From Synechococcus sp. (GTDB lineage Bacteria; Cyanobacteriota; Cyanobacteriia; PCC-6307; Cyanobiaceae): 64,000 bases of DNA. The first letter of the stretch is position 1. Each line of letters starts with the position of its first letter. Both the position numbers and the translations under genes were made by a program. The stretch spans positions 2,517,550-2,581,549 of the forward strand of contig JBJBEO010000001.1 in NCBI GenBank assembly GCA_047284725.1, written 5' to 3'. Positions 8,741-60,157 of this stretch are shown piece by piece. The notes under the pieces were generated by a model. The model had not been told where the DNA came from. It saw only the letters and a list, made by a program, of their open reading frames with translations, and searched no databases.

Positions 8741-9198
8741 TTGAGCGCTTGCTCAGGAATCACCCGGGCGTAGTTGGCAAAGCCCGTTGCCACCGACACA
8801 TAGCCCTTCTGTAGACGCGCGCCATCTTGGAGACGGGCCGCTTCGTCAAGGTTGGCCAGGCCATCTTTCAGGCTGGTGGCCAGCTGGTTGGCCTCGGCGC
8901 GATCGCCCGGCAGCAGACGCTGGTTGATGTAAAGCATTTCGCGACCCACCTCCTGCATGGGGCCGTGGATCAGGTTGCGGGTGAAGGTCCAGTCACGGGC
9001 ATTCACCAGCTTGGCCAGTTCAGGCAGGCGATCCTGAGCCGCCTTGAATTCAGTGGCATTGCGCCGGATCACGGCCATGTCATCGGGGCTGATGGTGGCA
9101 GCCTTGGCGTTGGCACCGTCTCCGCAGGCCACAAGGCTGAGGCAGAGGCAGGCACAGAGGCAGAACGAGGCTAGGCGACGCAGGGCTCTGAGTATCAC
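8737..9198 (-). CDS. psbQ: Photosystem II lipoprotein PsbQ (CyanoQ)
   Basis: Lipobox LVAC and DWTFTRNLIHGPMQEVGREM. Confidence 0.85.
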   Translation of the reverse strand: MILRALRRLASFCLCACLCLSLVACGDGANAKAATISPDDMAVIRRNATEFKAAQDRLPELAKLVNARDWTFTRNLIHGPMQEVGREMLYINQRLLPGDRAEANQLATSLKDGLANLDEAARLQDGARLQKGYVSVATGFANYARVIPEQALN

Positions 9199-9286
9199 GG
9201 AGCAGAGAAGGAGAATGGCCGCGACTTTACCCGGGTTGGTCGGCCCCCAGCGCGGTCGCGAGAATGGTTGTTCATGCGTTCGGCTT

Positions 9287-10141: not shown

Positions 10142-10237
10142 TCGGGGCGACGGCATGCGGGCGCGGCTGGGTTGGTGCGTTGTCTGGTGTTTGCATGGGT
10201 CGTTGCTCTGATGCGTGTGCCTGGCGTCCTCGCCGTT

Positions 10238-14680: not shown

Positions 14681-14714
14681 AGGTTGAGCTCGACCACGCA
14701 GGGCCGGTGGGGAA

Positions 14715-19816: not shown

Positions 19817-20094
19817 GTCGTCTGGGGGGAATGTCGGAGGTATAGCTGCCGTCAGGACAAGCCCAAAGCCTTAGGCCTGATCTCTTCCAAATCAAGCGTT
19901 AGGACGTGTCGTCATCGTTGTCGGAGCGAGAGCACCCCTTAAGCCATCGATAGGGCTGCACCGTCTGTCTGGCGGTGCAGCTTATGTTGGTTTGTGGTTA
20001 TCGCTCAGGTCTCTTGGTTGATGTTTGGGTTGATATTTTGCGTATCAACACTCGGCTAAAGCCGTTGCAATGACTGGGTTTTTGAGATCATAGC

Positions 20095-20118
20095 CCATTG
20101 GGAGCGAATGCTGCGGAG
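20095..20118 (+). repeat. Direct repeat copy 2 (att-like)
   Basis: Identical 24-mer, continuing CTAGTT versus TTAGTT in copy 1. Confidence 0.9.
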
Positions 20119-20332
20119 CTAGTTGGATCTCTCGTCATTCCCCTGCTTCAAAGGGCGCAGCGCGTCGACTGACCTGTCGAATCCCGTTGCATGCAATGCG
20201 TGATTCATCGCTGACTATTTTGATTGCGCTCTCAGACCACTCATCTGCTGCGTCCAAGTTCAAAGATTTGGTCAGCAAAGTCTGGCTGAAGAGCTGAAAT
20301 GGTATAAAATAGACAAAATAGATCAGTAAATC

Positions 20333-23300
20333 ATGTCTGCGCTTTTAGATCTTGGCTTCTTTGGTTCAAAGAAAAAGAATCATCTTCTCGACACTCTCGA
20401 CGGTCAGTTCGTTAATCCCAGCAATGCTCAATCTCGGTCTAATTTTGCTGTAAATAGTGAGATTGTAGATTTATCTTACCCTACTCTTTGTAGTTGTTCG
20501 TATTGTTGCGGCCAAGTAGCTACAACGAGTCATTTCGATAACAGGCCAGGTCAAGCTGATGATAAGATTCCGCCGTTTGTTGATGTAGGAAATGGCAAAA
20601 AAGTAGCCGAGCTTGATGCATACAACGCAGCAACTGACTACTCTTTTAGCAGCACATCTCAGCAGCAGTCCTGGAGTGAAGGCGAAAGTATCACGCTGAC
20701 CTGGAGCATTGTTCTGGATGGCACAACAATTTTTGCAGCCTATCCAGGCGAAGGACAAGAGACGGGAGGGAGCAATCTTCAGGCAAAACTGACCGCACTC
20801 TATGGAAGCGAGGAGATTTGGCTGTCTTTATTCCAGCAATCATTTGACCGAATATCATCGATCAGTGGCGTTAATTATGTTTATGTCGACTATGACGATG
20901 GCGCATCCATAGGTGGCACTAATAATACCGGGGTGGATGGAGTAAGGGCGGATATTCGCATTGGCGGTATAACAATAGACGGCGCTGGTGGGATTTTAGC
21001 TTACAATTATTTTCCCGATTACGGTGATATGGTTATAGATACTTCAGAGCTTGAAGGTCAAGGATATTTCACAAGCACGGGTTCAAATTCACTGGCTTTT
21101 AGGAATATGATCCAACATGAAGCTCTCCATGGCTTAGGAATTTCCCATACAGAAAGCTCTGATTCCAGTTTTCTCATGGAGCCATTCATTAATACAAGCT
21201 TTGATGGCGTTCAATACGATGACATCTCGGCTGTGCAGAGTCGGTATGGTGATGCCCTTGAGCAAGGTGCAGGAAATAACAGTTTTTCAACAGCATACGA
21301 TCTTGGCCTGGCGAGTTCCAGCTTGAGCATTGGTTTTGATTCCATTGATATGCGCGTTGAGCCTGATGAGGTCAGTTTTTACTCGATTCATAATGCCTCT
21401 GATGTTGATTATTTTTATTTCGGTATCAGCCAAGCCTCTATACTATCTCTCACGCTGACGCCTACTGGGCCTAGCTATCGACAATCACCTCAAGGAGGTG
21501 ATGAGTTTTTCTATGACGCCTCGAGTCAGAACAATCTTGGCTTTAATGTTTATGACTCCAGCCAAAATCTAATTGTAGAAGTTGACAATGGGTCGCTTGG
21601 TTTTCAGGATGCTTGGAGCAGTGATTTTGCTCTTGCCGGCAATTATTACGTAAAAATCTTTGGGACGTCTGGTGTGTTTGACACATACCAGAGTTATCAA
21701 TTTGATATTGCTTTAGAACCAGCGACTCCTAATCAATCACCAACAGCAAGCAATGATGATGTGCAGATACAGGAAGATACATCGGTTAGCATTGATGTTT
21801 TGTTGAATGATAGCGATCCAGATGCCGATATCCTCGTGATTTCAAGCTTTGACACGAATTCATTGCAGGGGGGGCAAGTTGTTCTCAATCAGGTCACTAA
21901 TGAGCTTGAGTATACCCCAGTCTTGAATTTTTTTGGTACAGATCAATTCACGTATCAAGTCAGTGATGGTAACGGTGGCTTCGACACTGCAACTGTTCAG
22001 ATTAATGTGCTCGCTGTCAATGACGATCCTGTTGCCAATAATGACACAGCCACAACAGAACAAGAAACTCCGGTCATCGTCAATGTTCTTGCCAACGATG
22101 AGGATGTAGATGGTGATGCATTAGAGCTGATGAGCACCTCAGAGCCGTTAAATGGGTCGGTATCCATTAGCAATGGAGAAGTTGTGTACACTCCCAATTC
22201 GGGTTTTACGGGTGATGATTCATTCACTTATATCGTGTCTGATGGTCTACTCAGCAGCTCTGCCGAAGTGACCATTACTGTTAATCCTATGAGCGAAGTG
22301 GTCACCGCTCTAGATGCTGAGCGAGTAGATGGTGATTTCGGTAATTACATTGAAAATACCAGTGTTGAAGGAACTTTTGTCAAAGGTGATGGAATTAGCG
22401 CAGTGCTTAGAGAGGAGATTCAGCCGGTCACTGGAGGGAGAAAGCCAAAAAACGGCAGTGTCTTAGATCGCGTTTGGGAATTTTCAGGGCTTAATTCAGC
22501 AACTTCCTTCACGGTTACTGCATCGCTTGATGGTTTCGATCAAGATGAGATCCAGTTCTCTTATTCAACGGATCTTTCTGGTGGATGGATCGATTTCTCG
22601 GCTATCCGAGTCAATTCATCCTCTTTGACCACCTATACACAAGAAGGCCTTTCCCTGTCGGGAACAGTGTATGTAAGAGCTGTTGACACTGACCGATCTC
22701 CATCCAATGGCAATAGCACGCCAGATCTTTCTGAACTTTCCATTGATTTTATGGGTTTTGAGCAGGTGAATGATCCCAGTAATGGTGGGCCCGGGTCTCT
22801 GACAGCCATCGGTGGAGATCCAGTCGTTGGTTCAACACTAGTCGCGCCTGAAGTGATTGGGGATCCAGATGGATTTACCAAGTATCTTGAATACAAGTGG
22901 TATGTCAGCGGTACTGAAGTAAAAACGTATGTTCCAGGTTCTGAGGGTAATCCAGATCTATTGGTTTCTGAAGATTATTTAGATTTAGGTAAAGAGATTA
23001 CTGTTGTAGTCAGATACTTAGATGGTGAAGGATACGAGGAGAGTGTGACATCCGAATCAGTGACAATTTCTCTCCCGGCTCCTGGTAATGTTATTGAATT
23101 CACCGCTGACAGAGATGAGTTGTTGGGAGTAGAAAATAGCGTCGATTTGTTTACGTTGAATAATCTGACTGACGCGCTTGTTGGCGGTGGCAGGAATCCA
23201 AGCACTGACAGCATTACTGGGCTTGAGCTCAGTTCAGATAAGTTGGATTTTACTTCTGCAAATCAAGCCGCAGACTGGAGGGGCGATGGAAGATATGTAG

Positions 23301-23521
23301 GTGATGCGCGAAGCCTCAAGAATCGTGATCTAGGGCGTTTGCTGACATCTTCGGCTTTTCAAGCAAACGATATTGTTGCATTTTCTGTGAGTGGTGACAA
23401 TCAATCGATTTATTTGGCTGTCAATGATCAATTCAATGGGTTTGATAACTCCACTGACGCCATTATAAGATTGATCGGCATTGAACAGTCAGATGTGAAT
23501 AATATTATGCTCGTAGCCTAA
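20333..23521 (+). CDS. Large multidomain M10/matrixin-type zinc metalloprotease with PPC-like, tandem Ig/cadherin-like and bluetail-like C-terminal domains
   Basis: HEALHGLGISH (HExxHxxGxxH), Met-turn FLMEP, GILAYNYFP, two NxxPxAxxD...YTP..F.G.D.FTY.VSDG repeats and C-terminal YLAVND..GF....DAII.L.G. Confidence 0.85.
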   Translation: MSALLDLGFFGSKKKNHLLDTLDGQFVNPSNAQSRSNFAVNSEIVDLSYPTLCSCSYCCGQVATTSHFDNRPGQADDKIPPFVDVGNGKKVAELDAYNAATDYSFSSTSQQQSWSEGESITLTWSIVLDGTTIFAAYPGEGQETGGSNLQAKLTALYGSEEIWLSLFQQSFDRISSISGVNYVYVDYDDGASIGGTNNTGVDGVRADIRIGGITIDGAGGILAYNYFPDYGDMVIDTSELEGQGYFTSTGSNSLAFRNMIQHEALHGLGISHTESSDSSFLMEPFINTSFDGVQYDDISAVQSRYGDALEQGAGNNSFSTAYDLGLASSSLSIGFDSIDMRVEPDEVSFYSIHNASDVDYFYFGISQASILSLTLTPTGPSYRQSPQGGDEFFYDASSQNNLGFNVYDSSQNLIVEVDNGSLGFQDAWSSDFALAGNYYVKIFGTSGVFDTYQSYQFDIALEPATPNQSPTASNDDVQIQEDTSVSIDVLLNDSDPDADILVISSFDTNSLQGGQVVLNQVTNELEYTPVLNFFGTDQFTYQVSDGNGGFDTATVQINVLAVNDDPVANNDTATTEQETPVIVNVLANDEDVDGDALELMSTSEPLNGSVSISNGEVVYTPNSGFTGDDSFTYIVSDGLLSSSAEVTITVNPMSEVVTALDAERVDGDFGNYIENTSVEGTFVKGDGISAVLREEIQPVTGGRKPKNGSVLDRVWEFSGLNSATSFTVTASLDGFDQDEIQFSYSTDLSGGWIDFSAIRVNSSSLTTYTQEGLSLSGTVYVRAVDTDRSPSNGNSTPDLSELSIDFMGFEQVNDPSNGGPGSLTAIGGDPVVGSTLVAPEVIGDPDGFTKYLEYKWYVSGTEVKTYVPGSEGNPDLLVSEDYLDLGKEITVVVRYLDGEGYEESVTSESVTISLPAPGNVIEFTADRDELLGVENSVDLFTLNNLTDALVGGGRNPSTDSITGLELSSDKLDFTSANQAADWRGDGRYVGDARSLKNRDLGRLLTSSAFQANDIVAFSVSGDNQSIYLAVNDQFNGFDNSTDAIIRLIGIEQSDVNNIMLVA

Positions 23522-23622
23522 TTTGATGTTCGCTAAATAAGTTTGTCCTCATGCTGATGAGGGTCCTCGACCCTATTAATAGTCATTGTGGCCATTGTGA
23601 GAATGAACCGCTGAGATTTGGC

Positions 23623-24273
23623 CTACGTGCTCAACCATTGCCAGCTCAGGCCGACAGCCAGAGGCACCGTGAGATTGTCGATGCCCCAGCGGCTCACCTG
23701 TTCCAGTCCCACCGCCAGCAGACTGATCAGCAGCAAGCCTGTGGCATCCGGATGGTGAGGGCTGAACAGGCTCAAACCAACTAGAACTCCAAGGCTGACC
23801 ACGGCCATGGTGAGGGTTCCCGCGATTGATTTTGTCTGCCCCCAGATCTGCCATCTGGCTGATGGCACGGCTCGGCCGATCAGTCCAGCCAGTCCATCGG
23901 CGGCAGCCATCACCAGCAAGCCAGCACAGGCGGCCTGCGGATGCTCTGGCCAGAACAGCACCAGCAGGATTGTGATGGCCAATCCATACGCGACCGTGCC
24001 ATAACTTCGGCGATCCACATCCTCAACGGCTGGCAGCAATCGCCAGCGGTGGTTGATCAAGGCCACCACGGTGATCGCCCCGGCAATGGGTACGGCCCAT
24101 CCCACAGGAATTGCAAAGTGCCACGCCAGGGGGAGCACCATGCCGCTGCCGATGTGCACGATCTTGCGGCTCAGTTCCCGCTGCTCTGGCCAGCGGCTGC
24201 GGGCGAGCACCGCCGCGATCAGCACGCTACCGATCCATGCGGTGATCACACCGATGCCGACCAGGGGAGGCAA
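23623..24273 (-). CDS. Phytol/dolichol kinase (CTP-dependent) family
   Basis: ELSRKIVHIGSG, ADGLAGLIG, KSIAGT and GIDNLTVP. Confidence 0.9.
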   Translation of the reverse strand: MPPLVGIGVITAWIGSVLIAAVLARSRWPEQRELSRKIVHIGSGMVLPLAWHFAIPVGWAVPIAGAITVVALINHRWRLLPAVEDVDRRSYGTVAYGLAITILLVLFWPEHPQAACAGLLVMAAADGLAGLIGRAVPSARWQIWGQTKSIAGTLTMAVVSLGVLVGLSLFSPHHPDATGLLLISLLAVGLEQVSRWGIDNLTVPLAVGLSWQWLST

Positions 24274-28942: not shown

Positions 28943-28956
28943 GTAGCAGTTGCTAC
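28943..28956. promoter_or_regulatory. NtcA box upstream of the cnaT-like gene
   Basis: GTA-GCAGTTGC-TAC, perfect match, intergenic. Confidence 0.75.
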
Positions 28957-46581: not shown

Positions 46582-47073
46582 GTGTACGAACTTCTTTCCT
46601 ACGAACGCTTCCGCGATACGCCGTCGGTGCGGTTTTTTGATGTCACTGTTGCCAGCTCCAACGCTCGTGATTTAGTGATTCATTCCGGCCCCGCGGTCAG
46701 CCCACCGGATGATGCTGAGACGGGTGCCTGGCAGTTCTATCTGCATCCCCACCAGGAAGACAATCTGCTTGCAGCTGGTGGAGGCCGCACCTTTTATCTG
46801 GTCAATCTCTCCTGGGATGAGCCGTTTCACATCGTTCGTCTTGAAAGCGGAGGAGACATCCTGCGGATTCCCCCTGGCACATTTCATCGCTCTATTTCTG
46901 ATCCTGAGGGTTCCGTGGTGCTGAACCAGGCCGTGCGCGAGGCGGGAGTTTCCCTTGTGCGTGAATTCCGTGTCTACAACAGTGCACGCATTCCGGCGTT
47001 GATGGCGGCTACCTCGATCGACGCTCCCAAACCATTGCTCCATGGTGTGGAGCCCATTCTTCAGGCCGCCTGA
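46582..47073 (+). CDS. Cupin-fold hypothetical protein
   Basis: FYLHPHQEDNL and LRIPPGTFHRS resemble cupin motifs 1 and 2. Confidence 0.65.
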   Translation: MYELLSYERFRDTPSVRFFDVTVASSNARDLVIHSGPAVSPPDDAETGAWQFYLHPHQEDNLLAAGGGRTFYLVNLSWDEPFHIVRLESGGDILRIPPGTFHRSISDPEGSVVLNQAVREAGVSLVREFRVYNSARIPALMAATSIDAPKPLLHGVEPILQAA

Positions 47074-47957
47074 AGCTGTGGCTCCAGGGTGGTTTGGTTG
47101 GAACCTTCCTCGGTCACGCTGATGCACCAATCCAATGTGCTGCGGGCGTTGGCCGGTCCGCTGAAACTGCCGCTCACGGCTGCCGTGAGATCAGGGTTGG
47201 AGGAGGTGGCGAGCACCACATAGCGTTCATTCACTTCACGGCCTGCACTGGGGTCGAACCCCCGCCACCCTGCCCCTGGCAGGTACACCTCAGCCCAGGC
47301 ATGAAGGTCGTAGTGCTCCGGAGCAGGATCGAGTAGTTGGTAGCCGCTCACAAACCGCGCCGGCAGTCCTACGACGCGGCAGCAGGTGACCATCAGCATC
47401 GCCAGATCCCGGCAGGAGCCGATCCTTTCCCTCAGCGTTCGACCCGCTGGCCAGGCGGGACCAACGTGGCGCTGGGTGTATTTCACACGGTCTTGAATCA
47501 GATCGATCAGTTGGTGGAGGAAGGCCAGGGTCTGTTGGTCGCTCCCCATCAGTGCCTCCTGGGTGAGCTCGATGGCAGACGGTTCGTGTTGGCCATTGGG
47601 GAGCCATCCCTCCAAAGCGCCGAGGAGATCCTGGTTGAGGTGGCCCCGGGGATAGGGCAGAGGCGGCTCAATGCCGTTGAAGCAGGTGTCCAGAGCAGGA
47701 GCTTCACGGGTTTCCACCCAACTGTTGGCTTCAAAGCAGAGACGGTCGGTGCTGCCGCAAAACCTGAGTCTGAGAATTTCGTCACCGCTGGCTGCCAGGA
47801 GTTCCCGTTGTTGGCTTGGTTCCGGCAGGACCAAAAGGGTGTGGTTGAGCAACCGTTGAAACCCCTGTCCCCGTGGCTTGAGGCAAAGGCGGTGGTCCCC
47901 CAGGGTCACCGGGGTGTCGTAGCGATACGTCAGGCGGTGAACGATGTGGGCACGCAT
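47061..47957 (-). CDS. Transglutaminase-like protein with N-terminal bacterial transglutaminase domain
   Basis: H.L.YRY N-terminus; triad GSCRD (Cys), HAWAEVY (His) and GWRGFDP (Asp); ARFVSGY. Confidence 0.92.
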   Translation of the reverse strand: MRAHIVHRLTYRYDTPVTLGDHRLCLKPRGQGFQRLLNHTLLVLPEPSQQRELLAASGDEILRLRFCGSTDRLCFEANSWVETREAPALDTCFNGIEPPLPYPRGHLNQDLLGALEGWLPNGQHEPSAIELTQEALMGSDQQTLAFLHQLIDLIQDRVKYTQRHVGPAWPAGRTLRERIGSCRDLAMLMVTCCRVVGLPARFVSGYQLLDPAPEHYDLHAWAEVYLPGAGWRGFDPSAGREVNERYVVLATSSNPDLTAAVSGSFSGPANARSTLDWCISVTEEGSNQTTLEPQLQAA

Positions 47958-48937
47958 AGGGGTGTGTTGGAGGGACCGGAGGGCGTCGCTGTTGCCTCGG
48001 GCGAGGTGAAGTAGCGGTCGTGAATGAGGCCGTGGAGCCGGTTGAGATCCACTTGCAGTTGGTCAATCGCTTCGTGCAGCCCTGTGCTGATCAGGGTGTC
48101 GATCCGTACGTAACTCCAGCGGGCCAGCAATTGACCGCGCAGACAATCGAGGTCATCGGGAGGCCCCTGCACAGGCTGTTGCTGAAGTTGTGCCAGCGTG
48201 CCGTTGATGCCTTGCAGGCAGAAGCGCACCGACCGAGGGAAGATGGGATCCAGCAACAGGAAGTCGGCAACGGAGGCCGGCGTGATCGCCTGCTGCTGGC
48301 TTTGGCGATACATCTGATAAGCACCGGCCGTGCGCAGGACCGTGATCCACTGCAGCTCGTCGAGCACGCCTCCGACGTCATCCGGGCTCGGCAACAGCAG
48401 GAAGTACTTCATGTCAAGGATGCGCGACGTTTTGTCGGCCCTTTCGATCAGACGACCCAGCTGACTGAACAACCAGCTCACATCGCGGCTCAGGGTGGCA
48501 TCCGTGATGCCGTACACCATCTGGCATCCCCGCCGAATGATGCGCAGTTGCTCCTGCACCGGTTCGCTCCAGATCGCTTCGCCAGTCTGGAGACTCCAAT
48601 GCAGATCATTCAGTTGCTCCCACATTTCGCTGGTGATCACGTCTCGGATCTGGCGTGCGTTTTCGCGGGCGATGGCGATGCAGCTGACGATGCTGTTCGG
48701 GTTGTCACGGTCGTGGAGCAGAAACCTCAGCACATCCCCAGGTGTGCCGGCTGGATAGGCCTGATCGAACCGTTGACGATCAGCGGTGGCGTCAACGAGA
48801 GGCAGCCATGGTTCGGCACTGCCTGGTGGGCAGTCGAGGGCCATCGCTTCACTCACTTCCAGAAACCGGGAAATGTTTTCAGCCCGTTCCAGATAGCGAT
48901 GGATCCAATAGAGCGAATCGGCAACGCGGCTCAGCAC
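47930..48937 (-). CDS. Alpha-E domain protein (DUF403)
   Basis: MLSRVADSLYW..RYLERAEN, ARENAR, GRLIERADKT.R and FPRSV. Confidence 0.92.
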   Translation of the reverse strand: MLSRVADSLYWIHRYLERAENISRFLEVSEAMALDCPPGSAEPWLPLVDATADRQRFDQAYPAGTPGDVLRFLLHDRDNPNSIVSCIAIARENARQIRDVITSEMWEQLNDLHWSLQTGEAIWSEPVQEQLRIIRRGCQMVYGITDATLSRDVSWLFSQLGRLIERADKTSRILDMKYFLLLPSPDDVGGVLDELQWITVLRTAGAYQMYRQSQQQAITPASVADFLLLDPIFPRSVRFCLQGINGTLAQLQQQPVQGPPDDLDCLRGQLLARWSYVRIDTLISTGLHEAIDQLQVDLNRLHGLIHDRYFTSPEATATPSGPSNTPLCVPTSFTA

Positions 48938-50406
48938 GGCACAGCCTCCCGGTTGCGCTCTGCCACCACCTGTTGCTCATCCACGATCCAGGTGTCTTTG
49001 CAGCCACCCCCCTGGGAGGAGTTCACCACCAGTGATCCCCGTTTGAGCGCCACCCGGGTGAGGCCTCCCGGACTGACCCAACTGTTGCGACCCCGCAGCA
49101 CATAGGGCCGCAGATCCACATGGCAGGGATACAGCTCACCGTCGCTCAGGGAGGGAACGGTGGAGAGTTGCAGGGTGGGTTGCGCGATGAAGTTGCGCGG
49201 GTTGGCTCGGATCTGTGCGTCGAAATGGGCGATTTCAGAGCGGCTGGCCTGGGGGCCGATCAGCATCCCGTAGCCGCCGGCTTCGGCAACGGATTTCACC
49301 ACCAGGTGTTCGAGGTTGGCCAAGACGAACGTGCGGTCGCGTTCCCGTGAGCACAGATAGGTGGGGACGTTCTCGATGATCGGCTCTTCGTTGAGGTAGT
49401 AGCGGATCATGGCCGGCACATGGGCATAGATCAGCTTGTCGTCGGCAACCCCGGTGCCCGGTGCATTGGCGATGGCGATGCGACCCTGGCGCATCACGTC
49501 GATCAGACCAGCCACCCCAAGCATCGAATCACCACGGAACACCGTCGGGTCGAGGAAGTCGTCATCGATGCGCCGATAGATCACATCCACGCCTTGGAGG
49601 CCATTGGTGGTGCGCATCCAGACCCGGCCGTTGTCGCAGATCAGATCGCGCCCCTCCACCAGGGGAATGCCCATCTGTTGGGCCAGGTAGCTGTGTTCGA
49701 AATAGGCGCTGTTGTACACGCCTGGTGTCAGCAGGACCACCCGTGGGGCATCACTCCAGGGAGCCATGTCCTGCAGGGTGCGCAGCAGGTGGCAGGGGTA
49801 GGCATCGATCGGTTGCACCGTGCGACCTTCGAACAGGCTTGGGAACAACCGCTTCATCACCTGGCGGTTTTCCAGGAAATAGGCAACACCAGAAGGGCAA
49901 CGCAGGTTGTCCTCCAGCACACGCCAGGTGCCTTCGCCATCGCGGATCAGGTCGAGTCCGGAGATTTGGCACCAGCGGTTGAGGGGGACCTGCACGCCCT
50001 GCATCTCAGGCCGCCAGCCTGAGGAGCTCTCCACGTCTTCCCTGGGAATGACTCCATCCCGCAGGATCTGTTGTCCGCTGTAAACGTCGACCAGAAAACA
50101 ATCGATTGCTTCCAACCGTTGCAGCAGTCCGCGTTCCAGTCGCTCCCATTCCTGGCTGCCGATCAGCCGGGGCAGGGGATCGAACGGCAGGATCCGTTCG
50201 CCACTGTGCAGATCACCGCCATTGAGGCGAAAGGTGGCGCCCAGACGCTTGAGTAAATGGCTGGCTGCAGCGTGGTTGCGGTTCAGTTCGATGATCCCCA
50301 TCTGGCCCAGGGATGAGAGCAGCGGCTGCAACGATGGCCTCGGAGCAGCGTTGTCTTGGCAGAAATATTCGTCGTAGCCGGCCGTGGGCCTGTAGTTGGA
50401 AAACAT
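48931..50406 (-). CDS. Circularly permuted type 2 ATP-grasp protein
   Basis: VLEDNLRCPSGVAY, NSAYFEH, YRRIDDDFLDP, VADDK, VDLRP and VVNSSQGGG.KDTW. Confidence 0.93.
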   Translation of the reverse strand: MFSNYRPTAGYDEYFCQDNAAPRPSLQPLLSSLGQMGIIELNRNHAAASHLLKRLGATFRLNGGDLHSGERILPFDPLPRLIGSQEWERLERGLLQRLEAIDCFLVDVYSGQQILRDGVIPREDVESSSGWRPEMQGVQVPLNRWCQISGLDLIRDGEGTWRVLEDNLRCPSGVAYFLENRQVMKRLFPSLFEGRTVQPIDAYPCHLLRTLQDMAPWSDAPRVVLLTPGVYNSAYFEHSYLAQQMGIPLVEGRDLICDNGRVWMRTTNGLQGVDVIYRRIDDDFLDPTVFRGDSMLGVAGLIDVMRQGRIAIANAPGTGVADDKLIYAHVPAMIRYYLNEEPIIENVPTYLCSRERDRTFVLANLEHLVVKSVAEAGGYGMLIGPQASRSEIAHFDAQIRANPRNFIAQPTLQLSTVPSLSDGELYPCHVDLRPYVLRGRNSWVSPGGLTRVALKRGSLVVNSSQGGGCKDTWIVDEQQVVAERNREAVPC

Positions 50407-50457
50407 CCTTTGTTCTGATGCCCGATGCATCCAATCGGTCGGATGAACCCACTCCTG

Positions 50458-50531
50458 GTTTCAGTTGCTACACATTCCGCAATTTCGCTCACATCGCAGT
50501 GCATCACTGCTGTTTTGGTATCTGTAGACAC
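50458..50531. promoter_or_regulatory. Two NtcA-like boxes in the ATP-grasp/symporter divergent promoter
   Basis: GTT-TCAGTTGC-TAC (50458-50471) and GTA-TCTGTAGA-CAC (50518-50531). Confidence 0.6.
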
Positions 50532-50617
50532 CGCTTGTATCGGTGAGTGCTTGGGGGTTCGGCCCGCATTTGCTTAGGTGTCTGCAAGTCACTGAGGCAG
50601 GTTCAGTGAGTGAACTG

Positions 50618-50731
50618 ATGTGGGCGCGCTTGATCTTTGCCATGGGGGCAGTGGTCACAGGGGCAACCGTGGCGATGATCGTGCGCGGTCATCTGTACTG
50701 GCAGCACCGGGATTCAAGCCATGTCCGCTAG
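50618..50731 (+). CDS. Candidate 37-aa single-TM micro-protein overlapping the symporter start
   Basis: MWARLIFAMGAVVTGATVAMIVRGHLYWQHRDSSHVR; alternative GTG at 50606. Confidence 0.5.
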   Translation: MWARLIFAMGAVVTGATVAMIVRGHLYWQHRDSSHVR

Positions 50732-52151
50732 CGCTGCACCGTTTCTCCAGCCTGGTGTCGCCTGGGCCCTGGTGGTGGTGTTCGCCGTGCTCTGGATCGC
50801 ATTGGGGATCGCCTGGGGCCGTCGGGGCAAAGGCGATGCCGATGACTACATGCTGGCTGGTCGCAACATCGGTTTAGCCCTCAGCACCGCCACCTTGATG
50901 GCCTCCTGGGTGACCGGGAACACCACCCTTCTGGCGCCTGAATTCGGGTACAAAACCGGTCTCTGGGGCATGTTCAGCTATGCCCTGGCAGGTTTGGGGC
51001 TGATCCTGTTTGCGCCTTTGGCGCTGCGGATCAAGCAACTGATGCCCTTTGGCCGCACCAGCGGCGATTTCATTCGCCTTCGCTACGGCCGGCTGGCCTG
51101 GTCGGTGTTCATGCTGATCACGGCGGTTTACACCCTGGGTTTCCTGATGACTCAGGCCATGGGCGCAGGCTTGTTGCTCCAAGCGTTGTCGGGGTTTGAC
51201 TACCACGTGGGAATGGTGGTTGTGCTTGGTGTGGCAACCCTTTACACCTTGTTCGGCGGGATGCGGGCTGTGATCGGCACCGACTTCATCCAATCCCTGT
51301 TGATCATGGTGCTCCTGGCCGTGGTGGCGGTGCTGGCGTTTCAGCAGTTCCCGATGCCCGAGGTCCATGCCGCCTTGAGCCGCGAGCATCCCGATCGCCT
51401 CGACCTGTTGCTGCCTGCGGGGCTCCTGATCGCCTGGAACTCAGCTCTGTTCTCGATGGGCGAGGTGTTTCACAACAACATCTGGTGGTCGCGCGTGTTT
51501 GCGTCCCGTCGTTCGGTGGTGATGGCGTCATTCGTGCTGGGTGGTCTGGCCTGGATGAGCGTGCCGATGGTGACGGGCTCCATCGGGCTGGTCGCATTGG
51601 CCCGGAATCTGCAGCTGGATCAGGTCAACATGGTGTTTCCGGTGATGGCGGCGGATCTGCTTGGTGCCGGTGGGGCCGCACTGGTGTTTGTCGTGGTGTT
51701 CGCCTCGTTGACCTCCACCTTGGACTCCCTGCTCGCGTCCACCGCTGATCTGCTCGCGGAGGATGTCTACTTCCGCTTGTTGCGCCCCCAGGCCAGCGAT
51801 GCCCAGCTCAAGCAGGCAGCGAGGCTGCTGGTGGTGGGCCTGGCTGTGGTGACCTTGGCGCTCTCCTGGCCGCGGCTGGATTCCCTCGCTTCCGTGTTGT
51901 TCTTCACCGGTGCGCTCGTGGCATCCACCGTGTGGCCTGTGGCGTGTGGGCTGTATTGGCGCACGGCCAACCGTCGAGCAGCGATTGTCGCGATGCTCAG
52001 CGGTAGTGCCGTGGGGTTGACGGCCTATGGGCTGATCGCTCCGTACTGCGCGGCGGTGTTTTCGGCTGCGGTATCGGCGCTGGTGATGGTGGTGGGTAGC
52101 CAGTGCTGGCCTGAACGGTTTGATTTCGTTTTATTGAAGGAGGAGGCATGA
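50721..52151 (+). CDS. Sodium:solute symporter, DUR3/urea-transporter-like
   Basis: DYMLAGRNIG, MASWVTGNT, YTLFGGMRAVIGTDFIQ and ASLTSTLDS; about 13 TM. Confidence 0.9.
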   Translation: MSASAAPFLQPGVAWALVVVFAVLWIALGIAWGRRGKGDADDYMLAGRNIGLALSTATLMASWVTGNTTLLAPEFGYKTGLWGMFSYALAGLGLILFAPLALRIKQLMPFGRTSGDFIRLRYGRLAWSVFMLITAVYTLGFLMTQAMGAGLLLQALSGFDYHVGMVVVLGVATLYTLFGGMRAVIGTDFIQSLLIMVLLAVVAVLAFQQFPMPEVHAALSREHPDRLDLLLPAGLLIAWNSALFSMGEVFHNNIWWSRVFASRRSVVMASFVLGGLAWMSVPMVTGSIGLVALARNLQLDQVNMVFPVMAADLLGAGGAALVFVVVFASLTSTLDSLLASTADLLAEDVYFRLLRPQASDAQLKQAARLLVVGLAVVTLALSWPRLDSLASVLFFTGALVASTVWPVACGLYWRTANRRAAIVAMLSGSAVGLTAYGLIAPYCAAVFSAAVSALVMVVGSQCWPERFDFVLLKEEA

Positions 52152-52297
52152 ACGTTGTGATGCCGATGCTGGCGACCTTGATCGATGCCACCTGGTTCAC
52201 GATCGTGCTTGCGGGCAGTCAAGTGGCGTTGGTGGCATCCGTGGTGGTGTTGCTGGTGATCTGGTGGGTGGAGTGGCGTAAGGGCCGGGTGTGGTGA
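52148..52297 (+). CDS. 49-aa single-TM micro-protein coupled to the symporter (not in the ORF track)
   Basis: AGGAGGAGG RBS and ATGA overlap; MNVVMPMLATLIDATWFTIVLAGSQVALVASVVVLLVIWWVEWRKGRVW. Confidence 0.75.
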   Translation: MNVVMPMLATLIDATWFTIVLAGSQVALVASVVVLLVIWWVEWRKGRVW

Positions 52298-52320
52298 AGC
52301 AGGCACGCCGGGACTATTCA

Positions 52321-52334
52321 GTAGCAGTTGTTAC
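52321..52334. promoter_or_regulatory. NtcA box upstream of the carbamoyltransferase operon
   Basis: GTA-GCAGTTGT-TAC, perfect match; weaker GCA-CTCGTTGC-TAC at 52384-52397. Confidence 0.75.
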
Positions 52335-52467
52335 GAGATTGGCCGTTCACTTCGAAGAAAGCGGCGTTTTTCTGGCCTGATGGGCACTCGTTGCTACAGG
52401 GTGAAACAAGCCTCCGGTTGCTTATGCGGTTTTTCGGAGTGTCGGTACGCAAGCCTGGAGGTCTGTT

Positions 52468-53580
52468 TTGGTAACTCAGCCGGCCGTCCTCGACTTGGAT
52501 GACGAGCAATTGCGTTTTGCTCCACTAGGCCCTGACGTGTACGGCAGAACGCATCCGCAGACCCTGCTGACCACGATTGAGGAAGACGCGGAACCGCTGT
52601 TGGATCTGGTCGGCCAGCACGTGGTCTCGATTCAGACGTTTCGACCGCAAACGCTGTTGCAGTTGTTTCGATTGGCGGCGAAGTACGAAAGCAACCCAGG
52701 GCGTTACATCACCCATAGCGTTCCGCTGCGGGGCAAGATCCTGATCAATGCGTTCTACGAGCCCAGCACGCGCACGCGTCTGTCCTTCGATAGTGCCTGG
52801 CATCGGCTCGGTGGCAGCTCGATCAACATCACAGACCGTGCCACCACAGGCATTGCGAAGGGCGAGTCGCTAGAAGATATCGCCCATATGTTCAACAACT
52901 ACGGCGATTGCGTCGTGCTGCGTGACGGCGATGCCGATGCTGTGTATGCGATGTCGCAGACGTTGCGGATTCCGATCATCAACGCCGGCAATGGCATCGA
53001 TGAACATCCCACCCAGGCGATGGCGGATCTGTTCACGATCCTGAAGTGGCGCCCAGCTCTCGTGGAGCAGCAGGTGGCTCCGGAGCAACGGATTCGCATC
53101 GGTGTGATCGGAGTGCCAGCTCGGATGCGCACGGTGCGATCACTGCTGCGGATTCTGGCCAAGTTTCCGCAGATGGTGGAGGAAGTGGTGGTGATCCACG
53201 CCTCGGAAGCCAATCCTGAAGAGTCGTTATTTGATCCCGGTCAGCGTGAGGAGTTGCGTGAGGCGGGCTTGAAGTTGCGCATCAGCACCGATCTGCTGGC
53301 GGAACTTCCCGATCTCGACGTCACCTACATCAATGCCATCGCCTGGGTGGGTGACAGCTTTGAAGTGCATGGTGACCAGTTCAGGCTCACCAAGGATCTT
53401 CCCTACAAACCAGGATCGATTGTTCTGCATCCGCTGGCGCGGGGGGCGGAGTTGAGCACCTGCATGGATGACACCCCCCAGAACTGGTATTTCAGTCAGG
53501 CCCGGGGTGCGGTGTTTCTGCGAATGGCCCTGCTCACTTGCATGGTGGATCGGGCCGAACGGGTCATGGATGTCGTCTGA
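52468..53580 (+). CDS. Aspartate carbamoyltransferase-like paralogue with divergent substrate site
   Basis: FYEPSTRTRLSF, AKGES, NAGNG..EHPTQ, RTVRS and HPLAR; TRVQKER-type loop absent. Confidence 0.85.
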   Translation: MVTQPAVLDLDDEQLRFAPLGPDVYGRTHPQTLLTTIEEDAEPLLDLVGQHVVSIQTFRPQTLLQLFRLAAKYESNPGRYITHSVPLRGKILINAFYEPSTRTRLSFDSAWHRLGGSSINITDRATTGIAKGESLEDIAHMFNNYGDCVVLRDGDADAVYAMSQTLRIPIINAGNGIDEHPTQAMADLFTILKWRPALVEQQVAPEQRIRIGVIGVPARMRTVRSLLRILAKFPQMVEEVVVIHASEANPEESLFDPGQREELREAGLKLRISTDLLAELPDLDVTYINAIAWVGDSFEVHGDQFRLTKDLPYKPGSIVLHPLARGAELSTCMDDTPQNWYFSQARGAVFLRMALLTCMVDRAERVMDVV

Positions 53581-53589
53581 GTCGGGCTT

Positions 53590-55614
53590 ATGTGTGGAAT
53601 CGGTGGCGTCTTCAATGCTGACCAGCAACAGGCGGTTGACCCGCAGCTGCTGGTCAACATGGCGGCGATTCAGTCCCATCGCGGCCCGGATGGGTTCGGG
53701 GTCGAAACCCTTGATGAGGCGGGCGTGGGTTTCTGTCATGCGCGCCTCTCAATCATCGATCTGAACGAGTCGCGAGCCCGTCAGCCCTTCCTCACCGATG
53801 ACGGTCAGGTGCTGATGGCCCATAACGGTGAGTTTTACGACTTTCAGCGCATTCGCGCCGACCTCACGGCCCAGGGGGTGCGGTTCAGTTCCAAAAGTGA
53901 TTCAGAGATTCTGTTGCGTCTCTATCAGCGCCAGGGGCTTGAGGCGACCCTGCCGCTGCTGCGCGGGGAATTTGCTTTTGCCCTGTTTGATCGAGCCCAG
54001 GACTGCTTGTATCTCGTGCGCGATCGCTTCGGCATCAAGCCCCAGTACTGGGCGATGACGCCCCAGGGCCTGGTGTTTGGCTCTGAGCTCAAGGTGCTGT
54101 TTGCCCATCCGGCAGTGGAACGACGTTTCACCTCGGAGGGCCTTTTTCATCAGTTGATGCAAACGATGGTCCCCGGCACAACCGCGTTTGCTGGGGTCCA
54201 TCAGGTGAAGCCCGGGCATGTGCTCAAGGTGCAGCGGACGGATGGCCGGCTTGAGGTGTCCGAGTGGACCTACTGGGATGTGAATTTCCCGCGAAAACAC
54301 GAGCGGGATCGCAGCCTCACGGAGGCCGATCACATCACGGCTGTACGGGCTGCCCTCCTGGAGGCGGTTGAGTTGCGGATGGTGGCGGATGTGCCGGTGG
54401 GGTGTTACCTCTCCGGTGGCATCGACAGTTGTTCAATCCTTGGTTTGGCGTCTGCGGTGAGTCAGTCGCCGGTGAAGGCCTTCACCATCGGTTTCGATGA
54501 TGCCCGCTACGACGAATCGCCGATCGCCCGGGAGATGGCCGATGCCACCGGAGCTGAGCAGGATCTGATGCGCCTTTCAGGGCGTGAGTTGTATGGACAC
54601 ATGGAGCGCACGCTCTGGCATGCCGAACGGACGATCTACAACACGCTGGCGGTGGCGAAATTTCTGATGAGCCGCCATGTCAACAGCGTTGACTACAAGG
54701 TGGTGATGACCGGTGAAGGCTCTGACGAGCTGTTTGGTGGTTATCCCGCTTTCCGGCGCGACATGTTCCTGCACGGTTTGGATGACCTCCCCGAAGGGGA
54801 ACGCCAGGCCTGGGAAACCCTGCTGCAGCAATCGAACTCCCTGGTGCAGGGCGCGATGCTGGCCGCCGATCAGGTGGATGACCCCGACCTCGATGCCGTG
54901 GTGGGGTTCACCCCCAGTTGTTTGCAGCCCTGGCTGGCATGTGCTCCATTGGTGCCCGCCTTGCTGGCCGATGAACATCGCCAGGCGCTCGTTGGCTATT
55001 CCCCCGGTCAGGCGATCGCGGCTCAGCTGGACCCTGATCAGCTCGATGGTCGCCACGCTTTGGATAAGGCGCAATACGTCTGGATCAAGACGATGTTGGA
55101 AGGCCAGATCCTCACCTGGGGTGGGGACAGGGTTGACATGGCCAACTCCATGGAGGCGCGGCCCGCATTCCTCGATCACCATCTCGCAGCAGCGGCGGTT
55201 CAGGTGCCGCCGGAGTTGCGGATCAAGGGAAAAACGGAGAAGTACGTCCTGCGTGAGGCCATGGCCGGGCTTCTCCCTGAGGTGCTCTACAAGCGTGAGA
55301 AATTTGCCTTCATGGCGCCTCCGGCCCACACCGAACCGGAGAAGTGGGCTCAGATGAAGCAGTTGGCGGATGACTACCTCAGCCACCAGGCGATCGATGA
55401 CGCCGGCTTGCTCAGCAAGGAGGGAGTGGGTGCCCTGTTTGCGCGTCACGATGATCCAGCCACCACCGACGCTGATCGTGTGCAGATGGACGCCGTGATC
55501 AACCACCTGCTCGGCGTTCAGATGCTGCATCGCATGTTCGTGGCCGCGGATGTGCCGGCGCAGGCCCAGGCGGAAGCCGAGCGTCTCGGCTGGCGGGTGC
55601 CCGTGACGGCCTGA
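53590..55614 (+). CDS. AsnB-family glutamine-dependent amidotransferase
   Basis: MCGI Ntn nucleophile, HRGPD, HNGEFY, RDRFGIKP, LSGGIDS, GEGSDELFGGY and EARPAFLD. Confidence 0.92.
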   Translation: MCGIGGVFNADQQQAVDPQLLVNMAAIQSHRGPDGFGVETLDEAGVGFCHARLSIIDLNESRARQPFLTDDGQVLMAHNGEFYDFQRIRADLTAQGVRFSSKSDSEILLRLYQRQGLEATLPLLRGEFAFALFDRAQDCLYLVRDRFGIKPQYWAMTPQGLVFGSELKVLFAHPAVERRFTSEGLFHQLMQTMVPGTTAFAGVHQVKPGHVLKVQRTDGRLEVSEWTYWDVNFPRKHERDRSLTEADHITAVRAALLEAVELRMVADVPVGCYLSGGIDSCSILGLASAVSQSPVKAFTIGFDDARYDESPIAREMADATGAEQDLMRLSGRELYGHMERTLWHAERTIYNTLAVAKFLMSRHVNSVDYKVVMTGEGSDELFGGYPAFRRDMFLHGLDDLPEGERQAWETLLQQSNSLVQGAMLAADQVDDPDLDAVVGFTPSCLQPWLACAPLVPALLADEHRQALVGYSPGQAIAAQLDPDQLDGRHALDKAQYVWIKTMLEGQILTWGGDRVDMANSMEARPAFLDHHLAAAAVQVPPELRIKGKTEKYVLREAMAGLLPEVLYKREKFAFMAPPAHTEPEKWAQMKQLADDYLSHQAIDDAGLLSKEGVGALFARHDDPATTDADRVQMDAVINHLLGVQMLHRMFVAADVPAQAQAEAERLGWRVPVTA

Positions 55615-55676: not shown

Positions 55677-56999
55677 GTGAATTTCCCTTTGAAGGAAAGG
55701 TCACGACCCTTGCCTCAGTTGCTGTCCAGCCGTCATCAGGTTTCTGTTCCAGCCGATCAGATTGGCTGCTTGGCCACGGCCCCTGATCGTGGTCGTTTGA
55801 TCGGAACCCTTGATCGCATGGCCTCCATCGGCCGTCAGGCCGACGGAGCGGTTTGTCGCCGCGGGTTCAGCGCCGCCGATGTGGAAGGCCGCGAGCAGGT
55901 GGCCCTGTGGATGCGTGAAGCCGGGATGGAGGTGCGGGTGGATCCCGCTGGCAACTTGATCGGTCGATTGGAGGGTCTTCAGCCGCACTTGCCTTCGCTG
56001 GTGACCGGCTCCCATCTCGACACCGTGCCGACGGGTGGTCGTTTCGATGGCGTGTTGGGAGTGCTGGCCGGCCTTGAGGCGGTGCGCTCTCTTGGTGATC
56101 AGAACCTGCGACTGCGTCACCCCCTTGAAGTGATCGCTTTCGCTGATGAAGAGTCGACGATGGTGGGTTGCAAAGGGATGGCCGGCACCGCGTCAGCCGA
56201 TCCTCAGGCCTATGCCACCAGTAATGGGGAGCCCATTGCTGTGAATCTCGAGCGCATCGGGGGCCACTGGCCTTCCCTGGCATCGGCTGCCCGCAGGGAT
56301 CGGGCCATGGCCGCTTTCCTTGAGCTGCATGTGGAACAGGGTGCTGTGCTGGAGCACCGCGGTGACGTTATTGGCGTCGTGCAGGGGATTGTTGGTCAGC
56401 GGCGGTTCAGTATCCATGTGAACGGACAGGCCAATCACGCTGGAACCACTCCCATGGCGATGCGTCAGGACGCTCTGGCCACGGCTGCCCAGGTGGTCTT
56501 GGCGGTGCAGGCGATGGCCGCTGATCATCCCGGCGATCCTGTGGCCACGGTCGGCAAGCTCGATGTCTGGCCCAATGCCGCCAACGTTGTTCCCGGTTCT
56601 GTGACCCTCACCGTGGATCTACGCGATCTTGATCCAGCTGTGTTGGATGAACTTGTCACCACCCTGATGGAGCGCCTCGAAGGGATTGGTGAAGCGTCTG
56701 GCTGCACCATCGAGCTCGAACCCCAGTTTTCGGTTGACCCCACGCCCGCCGATTCCAGGGTTATCGAGACCCTTGAGCAGGTGGCTCAGGATCTTGGTTT
56801 CAGCAACAGCAGGCTTCCCAGCCGTGCCAGCCATGACGCCCAAGAGCTGGGCCGACGCTGGCCGATGGGGATGATTTTCGTTCCCAGTCGGGGTGGCCTG
56901 AGTCATTCGGCCGCTGAATACACCAGCGATGAGCAGTGCTGGGCAGGCACGGCCGTGCTTCTGGAAGCCCTCCTGAGGCTGGATCGTGGGTTGGGATGA
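55677..56999 (+). CDS. M20 Zn hydrolase, N-carbamoyl-L-amino acid/allantoate amidohydrolase family; start uncertain
   Basis: GSHLDTV..GG.FDG.LG, DEE, ELHVEQG, NHAGTTPM, SHDA and GLSH. Confidence 0.9.
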   Translation: MNFPLKERSRPLPQLLSSRHQVSVPADQIGCLATAPDRGRLIGTLDRMASIGRQADGAVCRRGFSAADVEGREQVALWMREAGMEVRVDPAGNLIGRLEGLQPHLPSLVTGSHLDTVPTGGRFDGVLGVLAGLEAVRSLGDQNLRLRHPLEVIAFADEESTMVGCKGMAGTASADPQAYATSNGEPIAVNLERIGGHWPSLASAARRDRAMAAFLELHVEQGAVLEHRGDVIGVVQGIVGQRRFSIHVNGQANHAGTTPMAMRQDALATAAQVVLAVQAMAADHPGDPVATVGKLDVWPNAANVVPGSVTLTVDLRDLDPAVLDELVTTLMERLEGIGEASGCTIELEPQFSVDPTPADSRVIETLEQVAQDLGFSNSRLPSRASHDAQELGRRWPMGMIFVPSRGGLSHSAAEYTSDEQCWAGTAVLLEALLRLDRGLG

Positions 57000-57670
57000 C
57001 CTTCTCGATCGTTGCCAGAGACCCGAGTAACGGCCGATTCGGTGTGGCAGTCGCCACCTGCCACCTCGCAGTTGGCTCAACGGTCCCCCATATTCGTTCT
57101 GGGGTCGGTGCCGTGGCGACGCAAGCCCACACCAATCCTTATCTGGGCATCTGTGGCCTCGAGCGTCTTGAACAGCGTGCGGATGCGGAGGTCGTGCTTC
57201 AGAGTCTTCTGGCTGACGATCCCCACCGCGACCGCCGGCAGTTTCATTTGATTGATCTCCAGGGACGCACGGCCTGTTGGACCGGCACCGATTGTGGTGG
57301 CTGGGCTGGTCATCGCCATCATCAAAACGTATCCGTGGCGGGCAATTATCTGGTTGGCGAACAGGTTTTGACGGTCATGGAGCAGGCCTTTTTTGACAGT
57401 GACGCCACCTGGAAACTGGGGCGGCGTTTGATGCATGCCCTTCAGGCAGGAGAAGCCGCTGGCGGTGATCAGCGCTTGCCGAGCGCAACATCGGCCGCTC
57501 TCCAGATCAGTGGCGAAGCGGCATTCCCTTTGCTCGATTTACGCGTTGATTTTCGTGATGCTGCCGTGGCCGAACTGATGCAGGTCTATGAGCGCAGTCA
57601 GGATCTCTGGGCCCAGCAATGGCGCGATCAGTTATCGGAAGCGCCGGTGCTGAATCGGCTCGTGGCCTAA
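56996..57670 (+). CDS. DUF1028 family Ntn-hydrolase-like protein
   Basis: MTFSIVARD, GAVATQA, AGN.L, AGGD.R, SAAL and DLRVD; ATGA overlap. Confidence 0.88.
   Translation: MTFSIVARDPSNGRFGVAVATCHLAVGSTVPHIRSGVGAVATQAHTNPYLGICGLERLEQRADAEVVLQSLLADDPHRDRRQFHLIDLQGRTACWTGTDCGGWAGHRHHQNVSVAGNYLVGEQVLTVMEQAFFDSDATWKLGRRLMHALQAGEAAGGDQRLPSATSAALQISGEAAFPLLDLRVDFRDAAVAELMQVYERSQDLWAQQWRDQLSEAPVLNRLVA

Positions 57671-58447: not shown

Positions 58448-58451
<4 letters not shown>
57696..58451 (-). CDS. Stand-alone class I glutamine amidotransferase
   Basis: LGGPM, GICLGAQ (Cys), WHGD and QCHWE (His-x-Glu); GTGA overlap with ureC. Confidence 0.88.

Positions 58452-60157
<1,706 letters not shown>

Follow-up and report, generated by a model that had tools for sequence, protein, structure and literature searches.

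What does an aspartate transcarbamylase (ATCase) do once it has lost the residues that hold aspartate? This question is raised by one gene in a 64,000-nucleotide stretch of DNA from Synechococcus sp. (contig JBJBEO010000001.1), here called the window. The genome is a single contig of 2.58 Mb, and the window is its last 64 kb. The gene, located at 52468-53580 on the + strand, encodes a transcarbamylase of the 'pseudo-ATCase' or PyrB2 family. A sequence-only reading of the window had proposed that this ATCase paralogue accepts an alpha-amino acid with a non-acidic side chain, and that this would be a new specificity. We analyzed the protein, its family and its neighboring genes. The gene probably encodes a non-aspartate transcarbamylase that takes part in a carbamoyl/amide pathway.

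The carbamoyl-phosphate site is kept and the aspartate clamp is replaced

The open reading frame (ORF) starts with TTG, has GGAGG 8 nt upstream, and encodes a product of 370 amino acids (aa). This product matches the Pfam domains OTCace_N (136 bits) and OTCace (43 bits). All NCBIfam equivalog models for ATCase match as well, each under its cut-off; the best score was 181.1 for TIGR00670 (cut-off 236.95), and NF002032 gave 178.1 (cut-off 263).

Residues were compared with those of E. coli PyrB, whose numbers were assigned by matching motifs to Table 1 of PMC4581275. The motifs named in the sequence-only reading were all located in the translation and the alignments. The carbamoyl-phosphate (CP) motifs are STRT (100-103), KGE (131-133), VLRD (150-153) and HPTQ (180-183), followed by RTVRS (221-225), YINAIAW (287-293) and HPLA (321-324). 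The ATCase combination SxRT plus HPxQ is therefore present. The CP-site residues are retained (Ser52-Thr55 as 100-103, Lys84 as K131, Arg105 as R152, His134/Gln137 as H180/Q183), and so is the residue that holds the alpha-carboxylate, since R221 maps to Arg167 as had been suggested.

In ATCases, Arg229 and Gln231 of the RxQxER motif in the 240s loop bind the beta-carboxylate of aspartate (PMC4581275). Here this motif is missing and NAIAW stands instead, with T228 exchanged for N289, R229 for A290 and Q231 for A292. The cis-proline of the ATCase motif HP[LG]P is also exchanged (P268 to A324, HPLP to HPLA). An HMMER alignment with Arabidopsis PYRB (6yw9) pairs YQTRIQRERFG with YINAIAW--VG, GDLANGRTVRSL with GVPARMRTVRSL, and HPLPR with HPLAR. 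As judged by alignment, these results confirm an ATCase fold with a CP site and without the aspartate side-chain clamp.

We then aligned 296 family sequences (340-410 aa) with 62 ATCase representatives. At the position of Arg229, family members have Ala (198), Ser (96) or Thr (2) and never Lys or Arg, whereas 60 of the 62 ATCases have Arg. At the position of Gln231 the family has Ala (290), Ser (3), Thr (2) or another residue (1), compared to Gln in 58/62 ATCases. HPLAR occurs in 295/296 members, while position 324 is Pro in 100% of the ATCases, and GDL becomes G(V/I)P in the family. The replacements of TRVQKER by YINAIAWVGD, of HPLP by HPLA and of GDL by GVP, previously read from this one protein, are thus family traits, indicating that the changes to the clamp are fixed and not due to chance. 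The long N-terminal extension, also seen before, spans about 48 residues, of which G26, P30, L33, E39, L44 and L47 are conserved at at least 97%. Invariant family-specific residues include N289, W293, N339, P217, M220 and six positions of this extension.

The loop that replaces the clamp is neutral to acidic (D296 in 272/296, E299 in 283/296). A caveat to the loss of the clamp is position 306, the only partly basic position of the loop, which is Lys or Arg in 68% of members, a low share for a compensating residue, and might reach the site. Two further candidates for a compensating arginine were rejected: R346, which at first looked family-specific, is also Arg in some ATCases, including the genome's own PyrB, and R224 is already Arg in 13 of the 62 ATCases.

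Conservation also bears on whether the protein is catalytic at all. The loss of the HxLP cis-proline in 295/296 members would suit a non-catalytic pseudoenzyme that scaffolds or regulates the AsnB-type enzyme encoded next to it, and in a sister clade STRT, KGE and HPLx are clearly gone. However, from cyanobacteria to proteobacteria the CP-binding residues of the family are invariant or nearly so: STRT is found in 295/296 members (59/62 ATCases), HPTQ in 296/296 (56/62 ATCases, the other six having HPSQ), and R152 and K131 are kept. Such conservation is unexpected without catalysis, and we regard a pseudoenzyme as very improbable.

The family stands apart from genuine ATCases

An AlphaFold model of the transcarbamylase, built from a 52-row alignment, had a mean predicted local distance difference test score of 90.3. 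Its top Foldseek matches were ATCases, with template modeling (TM) scores by target of 0.80-0.90 and 26-33% identity. The model shares the fold of E. coli PyrB (PDB 1d09; TM 0.87, root-mean-square deviation 2.1 Å, 31% identity), and the CP site and the Arg167 and Lys84 equivalents are common to both. Apart from the residue changes (Arg229 to Ala/Ser, Gln231 to Ala, Pro268 to Ala, GDL to G(V/I)P), it differs from the E. coli enzyme in the 48-residue N-terminal extension and in the 240s region, which is modeled as a short beta-hairpin.

A search of the genome with PF02729 returned three loci, namely a canonical pyrB, argF and the gene at 52468-53580, which is the third transcarbamylase of the genome. 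The canonical PyrB has 348 aa and carries TLRLQKER and HPGPVNRG. The gene studied here is thus not the only pyrB, a case that would have spoken for an ordinary ATCase.

Phylogeny was assessed with a quick maximum-likelihood tree of 58 rows, the root of which is uncertain and in which two 'own' outgroup rows are long-branched. The family (17 rows) formed one clade with a support of 96 in the Shimodaira-Hasegawa-like approximate likelihood ratio test (SH-aLRT). A 36-row superclade including the family separated from 20 ATCase representatives (SH-aLRT 100), and its members at 39-42% identity retain HPLA. Like the marine pseudo-ATCases, the protein hence belongs to a clade apart from genuine ATCases, in a genome with a genuine pyrB.

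The tree also contained a 14-row sister clade (support 100; P0130, P0136-P0154, P0171; about 355 aa) without STRT, KGE and HPLx that retains the N-terminal extension and most of HPTx. These ATCase-like proteins are probable pseudoenzymes, judging from their motifs.

Because the protein scores under every equivalog cut-off, lacks the RxQ clamp family-wide and coexists with pyrB and argF, the view that it is not an ordinary ATCase is supported by its predicted features. To this extent the proposal of a non-ATCase stands. The loss of the clamp, on the other hand, is already known. Barba, Dutoit, Legrain & Labedan 2013 (BMC Syst Biol 7:99, PMC4016543) named these proteins 'pseudo-ATCases' and tabulated HPLA and 'AIA or AIS or SIA' at the RXQ position. 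Their marine subgroup includes Synechococcus WH 8102 and Nitrosococcus oceani, and has a Na+ symporter on one side, an 'asparaginase' on the other and a HyuC-like gene nearby; the passages on this subgroup assign it no function, and the numbering of the table rows disagrees with that of the subgroups in the text. Our protein matches this subgroup in its motif set (STRT, HPTQ, HPLA, AIA/AIS/SIA), synteny (their 'asparaginase' being the AsnB-type gene) and host group. Without any substantive difference from what is described there, it is one more member. Among the titles listed in a literature search on pyrB2, no functional study of the family was found.

The family has nevertheless been given a role in pyrimidine synthesis. 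Doré et al. 2023 (ISME J, PMC10119275) list a cluster asnB-pyrB2-pydC in marine picocyanobacteria and propose an alternative pyrimidine pathway for it, which would make the protein a second ATCase. Their cluster consists of the same genes and, like the module described below, is patchy within the genus, although the text on the cluster does not mention the symporter, the micro-ORFs or the DUF1028 gene. The ATCase fold and the database names agree with this suggestion. The missing aspartate clamp disfavors it: the RxQ motif is absent in 296/296 members, all ATCase equivalog scores are under their cut-offs, a canonical pyrB lies elsewhere in the genome, and the Pfam and NCBIfam matches of the module include no pyrC-type gene. 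We therefore consider a second ATCase very unlikely.

Another role is known from within the group. Ureidoglycine transcarbamylase (UGTCase; Rxyl_2847 of Rubrobacter xylanophilus) belongs to another subgroup, was assayed by Barba et al. as the sole such member of the wider pseudo-ATCase group and works catabolically (PMC4016543), in the sense allantoate + phosphate to ureidoglycine + CP. Like our protein, it is an ATCase-branch paralogue that has kept the CP motifs, lost RxQ and gained an N-terminal extension, and it acts on an alpha-amino acid whose side chain is neutral. PMC4016543 and our tree place both in one broad clade at the base of the ATCase branch, and the M20 enzyme encoded nearby narrowly passes the 'allantoate amidohydrolase' subfamily model (402 vs 399 bits). 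However, the UGTCase signature is H(T/S)LP (PMC4581275), whereas the family studied here has HPLA. The context of UGTCase, purine catabolism and carbamate kinase, was not seen either: no allantoinase or uricase was found among the Pfam and NCBIfam matches of neighboring ORFs, and a search of the genome for carbamate kinase (arcC) gave a best score of 30.9 bits against a cut-off of 358, indicating that none is present. A UGTCase would also leave the AsnB-type enzyme unexplained, and this identity is highly improbable.

The transcarbamylase is part of a conserved gene module

The gene neighborhood is summarized in Table 1. Occurrence of the module was counted by tblastn of the window proteins against 80 related loci.

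Table 1. Features of the transcarbamylase module in the window.
Feature	Position	Strand	Basis
37-aa hydrophobic micro-ORF, overlaps symporter start	50618..50731	+	Translation; tblastn match at the same place in 36/80 loci
Na+/solute symporter, DUR3-like	50721..52151	+	Pfam SSF, 105 bits
49-aa membrane micro-protein, ATG overlaps symporter stop (ATGA)	52148..52297	+	Translation, tblastn
NtcA-type box GTAGCAGTTGTTAC, 134 nt upstream of transcarbamylase start	52321..52334	+	Perfect GTA-N8-TAC; putative function
Transcarbamylase, 'pseudo-ATCase' / PyrB2 family	52468..53580	+	Pfam, NCBIfam, HMMER, family alignment, tree, AlphaFold/Foldseek
Long AsnB-type glutamine amidotransferase	53590..55614	+	Asn_synthase, 307 bits, plus GATase_6/7
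M20 hydantoinase/carbamoylase-family amidohydrolase ('pydC' of Doré et al.)	55677..56999	+	TIGR01879, 401 bits (cut-off 204)
DUF1028 protein	56996..57670	+	Pfam DUF1028, 225 bits

The AsnB-type gene begins 9 nt past the transcarbamylase stop. Its adjacency, on which the sequence-only reading had relied, proved to be general: it lies directly downstream of the transcarbamylase gene in 75 of the 80 loci, in cyanobacteria as well as gammaproteobacteria. Four of the remaining five loci terminate at or just past the transcarbamylase, and the fifth, L081, has different neighbors. Since both the MCGIGG N-terminus with Cys2 and the SGGIDS PP-loop are intact, the AsnB-type enzyme should use glutamine and ATP.

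The closest solved relative of the symporter is the urea-proton symporter DUR3 (108 bits), followed by SGLT1 (47 bits). The symporter gene was found upstream of the transcarbamylase in 45/80 loci and was absent beside Prochlorococcus-type loci. The 49-aa micro-protein had matches at the same position in 45 loci, three of them weak gammaproteobacterial ones, and the 37-aa micro-ORF had no Pfam match.

Downstream, the M20 enzyme (64/80 loci) scored best with the model of the N-carbamoyl-L-glutamate amidohydrolase ErtE, at 420 bits and under the cut-off of 520. The DUF1028 protein (58/80 loci) has what we take to be an Ntn-hydrolase fold. Its match to PDB 2imh runs from chain residue 2 at query residue 20, and the true start is most likely MTFSIV..., where the ATG overlaps the stop of the M20 gene (ATGA). 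A literature search on DUF1028 found nothing relevant to the module.

Four gammaproteobacterial loci carry the module. Three are ordered M20, isochorismatase-like hydrolase, symporter, transcarbamylase, AsnB; the fourth, L075, is without the symporter. Their M20 proteins are only 37-38% identical to that of the window, and the isochorismatase-like hydrolase stands in place of DUF1028, so that the two hydrolase roles appear to be kept by different proteins. Cyanobacterial and proteobacterial members of the transcarbamylase family share 60-67% identity. Within the genus, the cluster was found in 11 of 36 other genomes.

The SAR324 locus L081 was not counted as the same module on account of its other neighbors. 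In the region 7905-14858 of this locus, the transcarbamylase relative (53% identical, HPLA kept) is accompanied by an MFS-HEAT-cNMP-binding protein of 1123 aa, an amidase-signature enzyme and a TauD-like protein, so that the same type of transcarbamylase may serve another pathway there. In two Synechococcus loci a hydantoinase A/B (oxoprolinase-type) fusion of 1055 aa closely follows the module but is encoded on the other strand (L014, 8920-10299; L015, 13790-16957, -).

A putative pathway to an N-carbamoyl amino-acid amide

How could these proteins work together? From the features described above we infer that the enzyme is active, which acceptor it uses, in what order the steps run, and what the product and its role in the cell are. 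The transcarbamylase would bind CP as ATCase does. The alpha-carboxylate of the acceptor would be held by the Arg167 and Lys84 equivalents, and an acidic side chain would no longer be clamped. Because the alpha-carboxylate clamp is kept and that for an acidic side chain is lost, the enzyme is predicted to carbamoylate an L-amino acid with a neutral, or possibly basic, side chain at its alpha-amino group. The translationally linked AsnB-type enzyme would then amidate the free carboxylate at the expense of glutamine and ATP, yielding an uncharged N-carbamoyl amino-acid amide. The DUR3-like symporter would re-import this solute, and the M20 enzyme, as a decarbamoylase, and the DUF1028 hydrolase would degrade it. 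Biosynthesis rather than breakdown is indicated by the ATP- and glutamine-consuming AsnB partner in a fixed operon order.

A non-acidic alpha-amino acid as acceptor, the part of the sequence-only reading that concerned specificity, fits the retained Arg167/Lys84 equivalents, the loss of the clamp and the neutral-to-acidic loop with D296 and E299, and it stays a prediction. That reading had further assumed that AsnB could supply an Asn/Gln-type acceptor. The retained alpha-carboxylate clamp and the analogy to AsnO instead suggest that the AsnB-type enzyme acts after the transcarbamylase.

This analogy comes from the osmolyte N-acetylglutaminylglutamine amide (NAGGN). The NAGGN system consists of asnO, ngg and an M42 peptidase, and the AsnB-type AsnO amidates the alpha-carboxylate of a capped glutamine-type residue. 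An amino cap, an AsnB-type carboxylate amidation and a hydrolase in the same operon are thus common to both systems. In our module, however, the cap would come from a transcarbamylase and not from a GNAT/ATP-grasp enzyme, the AsnB-type protein reaches 301 bits against the TIGR03104 cut-off of 570, and the hydrolases are from other families. No Ngg partner (GNAT + ATP-grasp) was found among the Pfam and NCBIfam matches of the module genes.

A solute of the predicted kind, N-carbamoyl-glutamine amide (CGA), has been known as an osmolyte since 1991. It was described in Ectothiorhodospira marismortui (PMC1224877, PMC7824335), and in the parts of the literature that name CGA we found no genes assigned to its synthesis. 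Members of the transcarbamylase family are named from E. mobilis (3 records), E. marina, E. magna, E. shaposhnikovii and E. lacustris, and in PMC1224877 E. marismortui, which makes CGA, is equated with E. mobilis. Further members occur in Thiorhodospira sibirica and Ectothiorhodosinus mongolicus, which PMC7824335 describes as being without betaine or ectoine biosynthesis and for which it suggests CGA as a possible solute. In two of the 80 loci, L017 and L027, the module is flanked by a betaine-type ABC transporter with two methyltransferases on one side, and by a HAD phosphatase and an amylase-family enzyme (sugar-solute-like genes) on the other. The DUR3-like symporter fits a neutral solute with a ureido cap.

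Since the symporter is DUR3-like, we had also considered a carrier cycle from urea to CP, in which AsnB ligates urea to an acid, the transcarbamylase phosphorolyses the product and an amidase regenerates the acid. This was rejected as unsupported, since the glutaminase Cys2 is intact.

Possible nitrogen control and the case for scavenging

Several points weigh against CGA or a related amide as the product. The enzymes that would make and break the solute lie in one operon. With its acidic residues D296 and E299, the loop would be compatible with a basic side chain, too. The link to E. mobilis covers the transcarbamylase only, at species level, and the preponderance of marine and saline carriers may in part be due to the choice of genomes for sequencing. 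CGA from Synechococcus or Prochlorococcus was not encountered in the literature, in which no search was aimed at it.

The remaining points concern nitrogen. Perfect GTA-N8-TAC palindromes occur six times in the window (at 28943, 40027, 44793, 52321, 61807 and 63693) compared to 0.71 expected. One of them sits between the symporter unit and the transcarbamylase (Table 1); the other five adjoin cynS, the nitrate-reductase region, nrtP/moaA and ureD/ureE, or lie just past ureG. The window is a dense nitrogen-assimilation island, in which the module stands between nrtP/moaA and the urease genes. Such a nitrate/urease island surrounds the module in 14/80 loci, which are close kin and not independent. 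The same-genus genome G025 has two complete seven-gene copies, one in the nitrate/urease island (L084, L085 being the two loci) and a second beside glnN, the gene for type III glutamine synthetase. In addition, the cluster was reported mainly from N- and P-depleted waters (PMC10119275). An NtcA-type box looks like a pointer to nitrogen control, which would be odd for a solute with four nitrogen atoms in nitrogen-poor water. The glnN-adjacent copy in G025 appears to split a ZnuABC-type metal transporter set.

The box upstream of the transcarbamylase is conserved: GTA-N8-NAC occupies identical columns of the alignment in 11 of 13 close relatives (counted by hand), with an A-rich block about 20 nt after it, and three Prochlorococcus loci have a box with TATTTT 17-18 nt after it. 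The leader (52335-52467) matches no Rfam family but has conserved blocks, an A-rich one and further on GTTGTTAC..GGTGAA. A riboswitch in the 5' leader was rejected, as Rfam over 50300-52600 at E <= 1 gave just two chance-level matches. A scan of 50350-52480 for sigma-70 promoters returned 0 sites. As for expression data, five runs contained only 8-16% of the sampled words; four were 'probably DNA', synthetic metagenomes in the form of contigs.

These observations would suit nitrogen scavenging, in which the DUR3-like symporter imports a ureido compound and the module strips it of its nitrogen. The transcarbamylase would run in reverse (ureido compound + phosphate to amine + CP) and feed arginine and pyrimidine synthesis, while the M20 and DUF1028 enzymes free ammonia. 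The perfect box among boxes at nitrogen genes, its conservation in relatives and in Prochlorococcus, the nitrate/urease island, the copy beside glnN and the report from N-depleted waters (PMC10119275) all agree with this, as does the catabolic direction of UGTCase (PMC4016543). However, the intact ATP- and glutamine-consuming AsnB-type enzyme (75/80 loci) has no obvious catabolic role. Because the genome is without carbamate kinase, the unfavorable phosphorolysis would lack its classical pull. In Prochlorococcus loci, no transporter gene adjoins the module, and we know of no substrate that would require all five functions to run the same way. We regard scavenging, the main rival, as unlikely, though it deserves to be taken seriously.

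We therefore favor an active non-aspartate transcarbamylase that makes, together with its partners, an N-carbamoyl amino-acid amide, with CGA as the favored product, and give this explanation as a whole about an even chance. That the product is an N-carbamoyl amino-acid amide falls slightly short of even, and CGA itself is a tentative candidate. In its fullest form, the protein would be an N-alpha-transcarbamylase for glutamine or another neutral amino acid, forming the missing CGA pathway with the AsnB-type enzyme; the solute would be made, recaptured and degraded under NtcA control as an osmolyte and a minor nitrogen reserve in marine picocyanobacteria. This scheme is possible but doubtful.

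Other features of the window

Between moaA and the module, on the - strand, lies a trio of circularly permuted ATP-grasp, alpha-E and transglutaminase-like genes (47061-50430), which is conserved there in loci with the nitrate/urease context. Rfam gave a match to 5_ureB_sRNA (160 bits, 59716-60002, +) on the opposite strand to ureC (58448-60157, -); it may reflect only the conservation of the urease coding sequence and not an antisense RNA. A low-GC island at 20001-24000 (44-48% vs about 61%) contains an ORF (20333-23521, +) for a protein of 1062 aa that carries Big_9, cadherin-like and matrixin (M10) domains and is probably secreted and acquired.

Significance

At minimum, the name 'aspartate carbamoyltransferase', under which databases label the proteins of this family, is misleading. 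The module is common, with 1420 database proteins matching an Ectothiorhodospira member at E <= 1e-100. If the favored explanation is true, a transcarbamylase specificity never assayed before becomes defined, and a long-known osmolyte, CGA, gains its genes. In the most abundant marine phototrophs the module is a patchy, niche-linked trait (PMC10119275), and whether it serves salt tolerance or nitrogen economy matters for the interpretation of ocean metagenomes.

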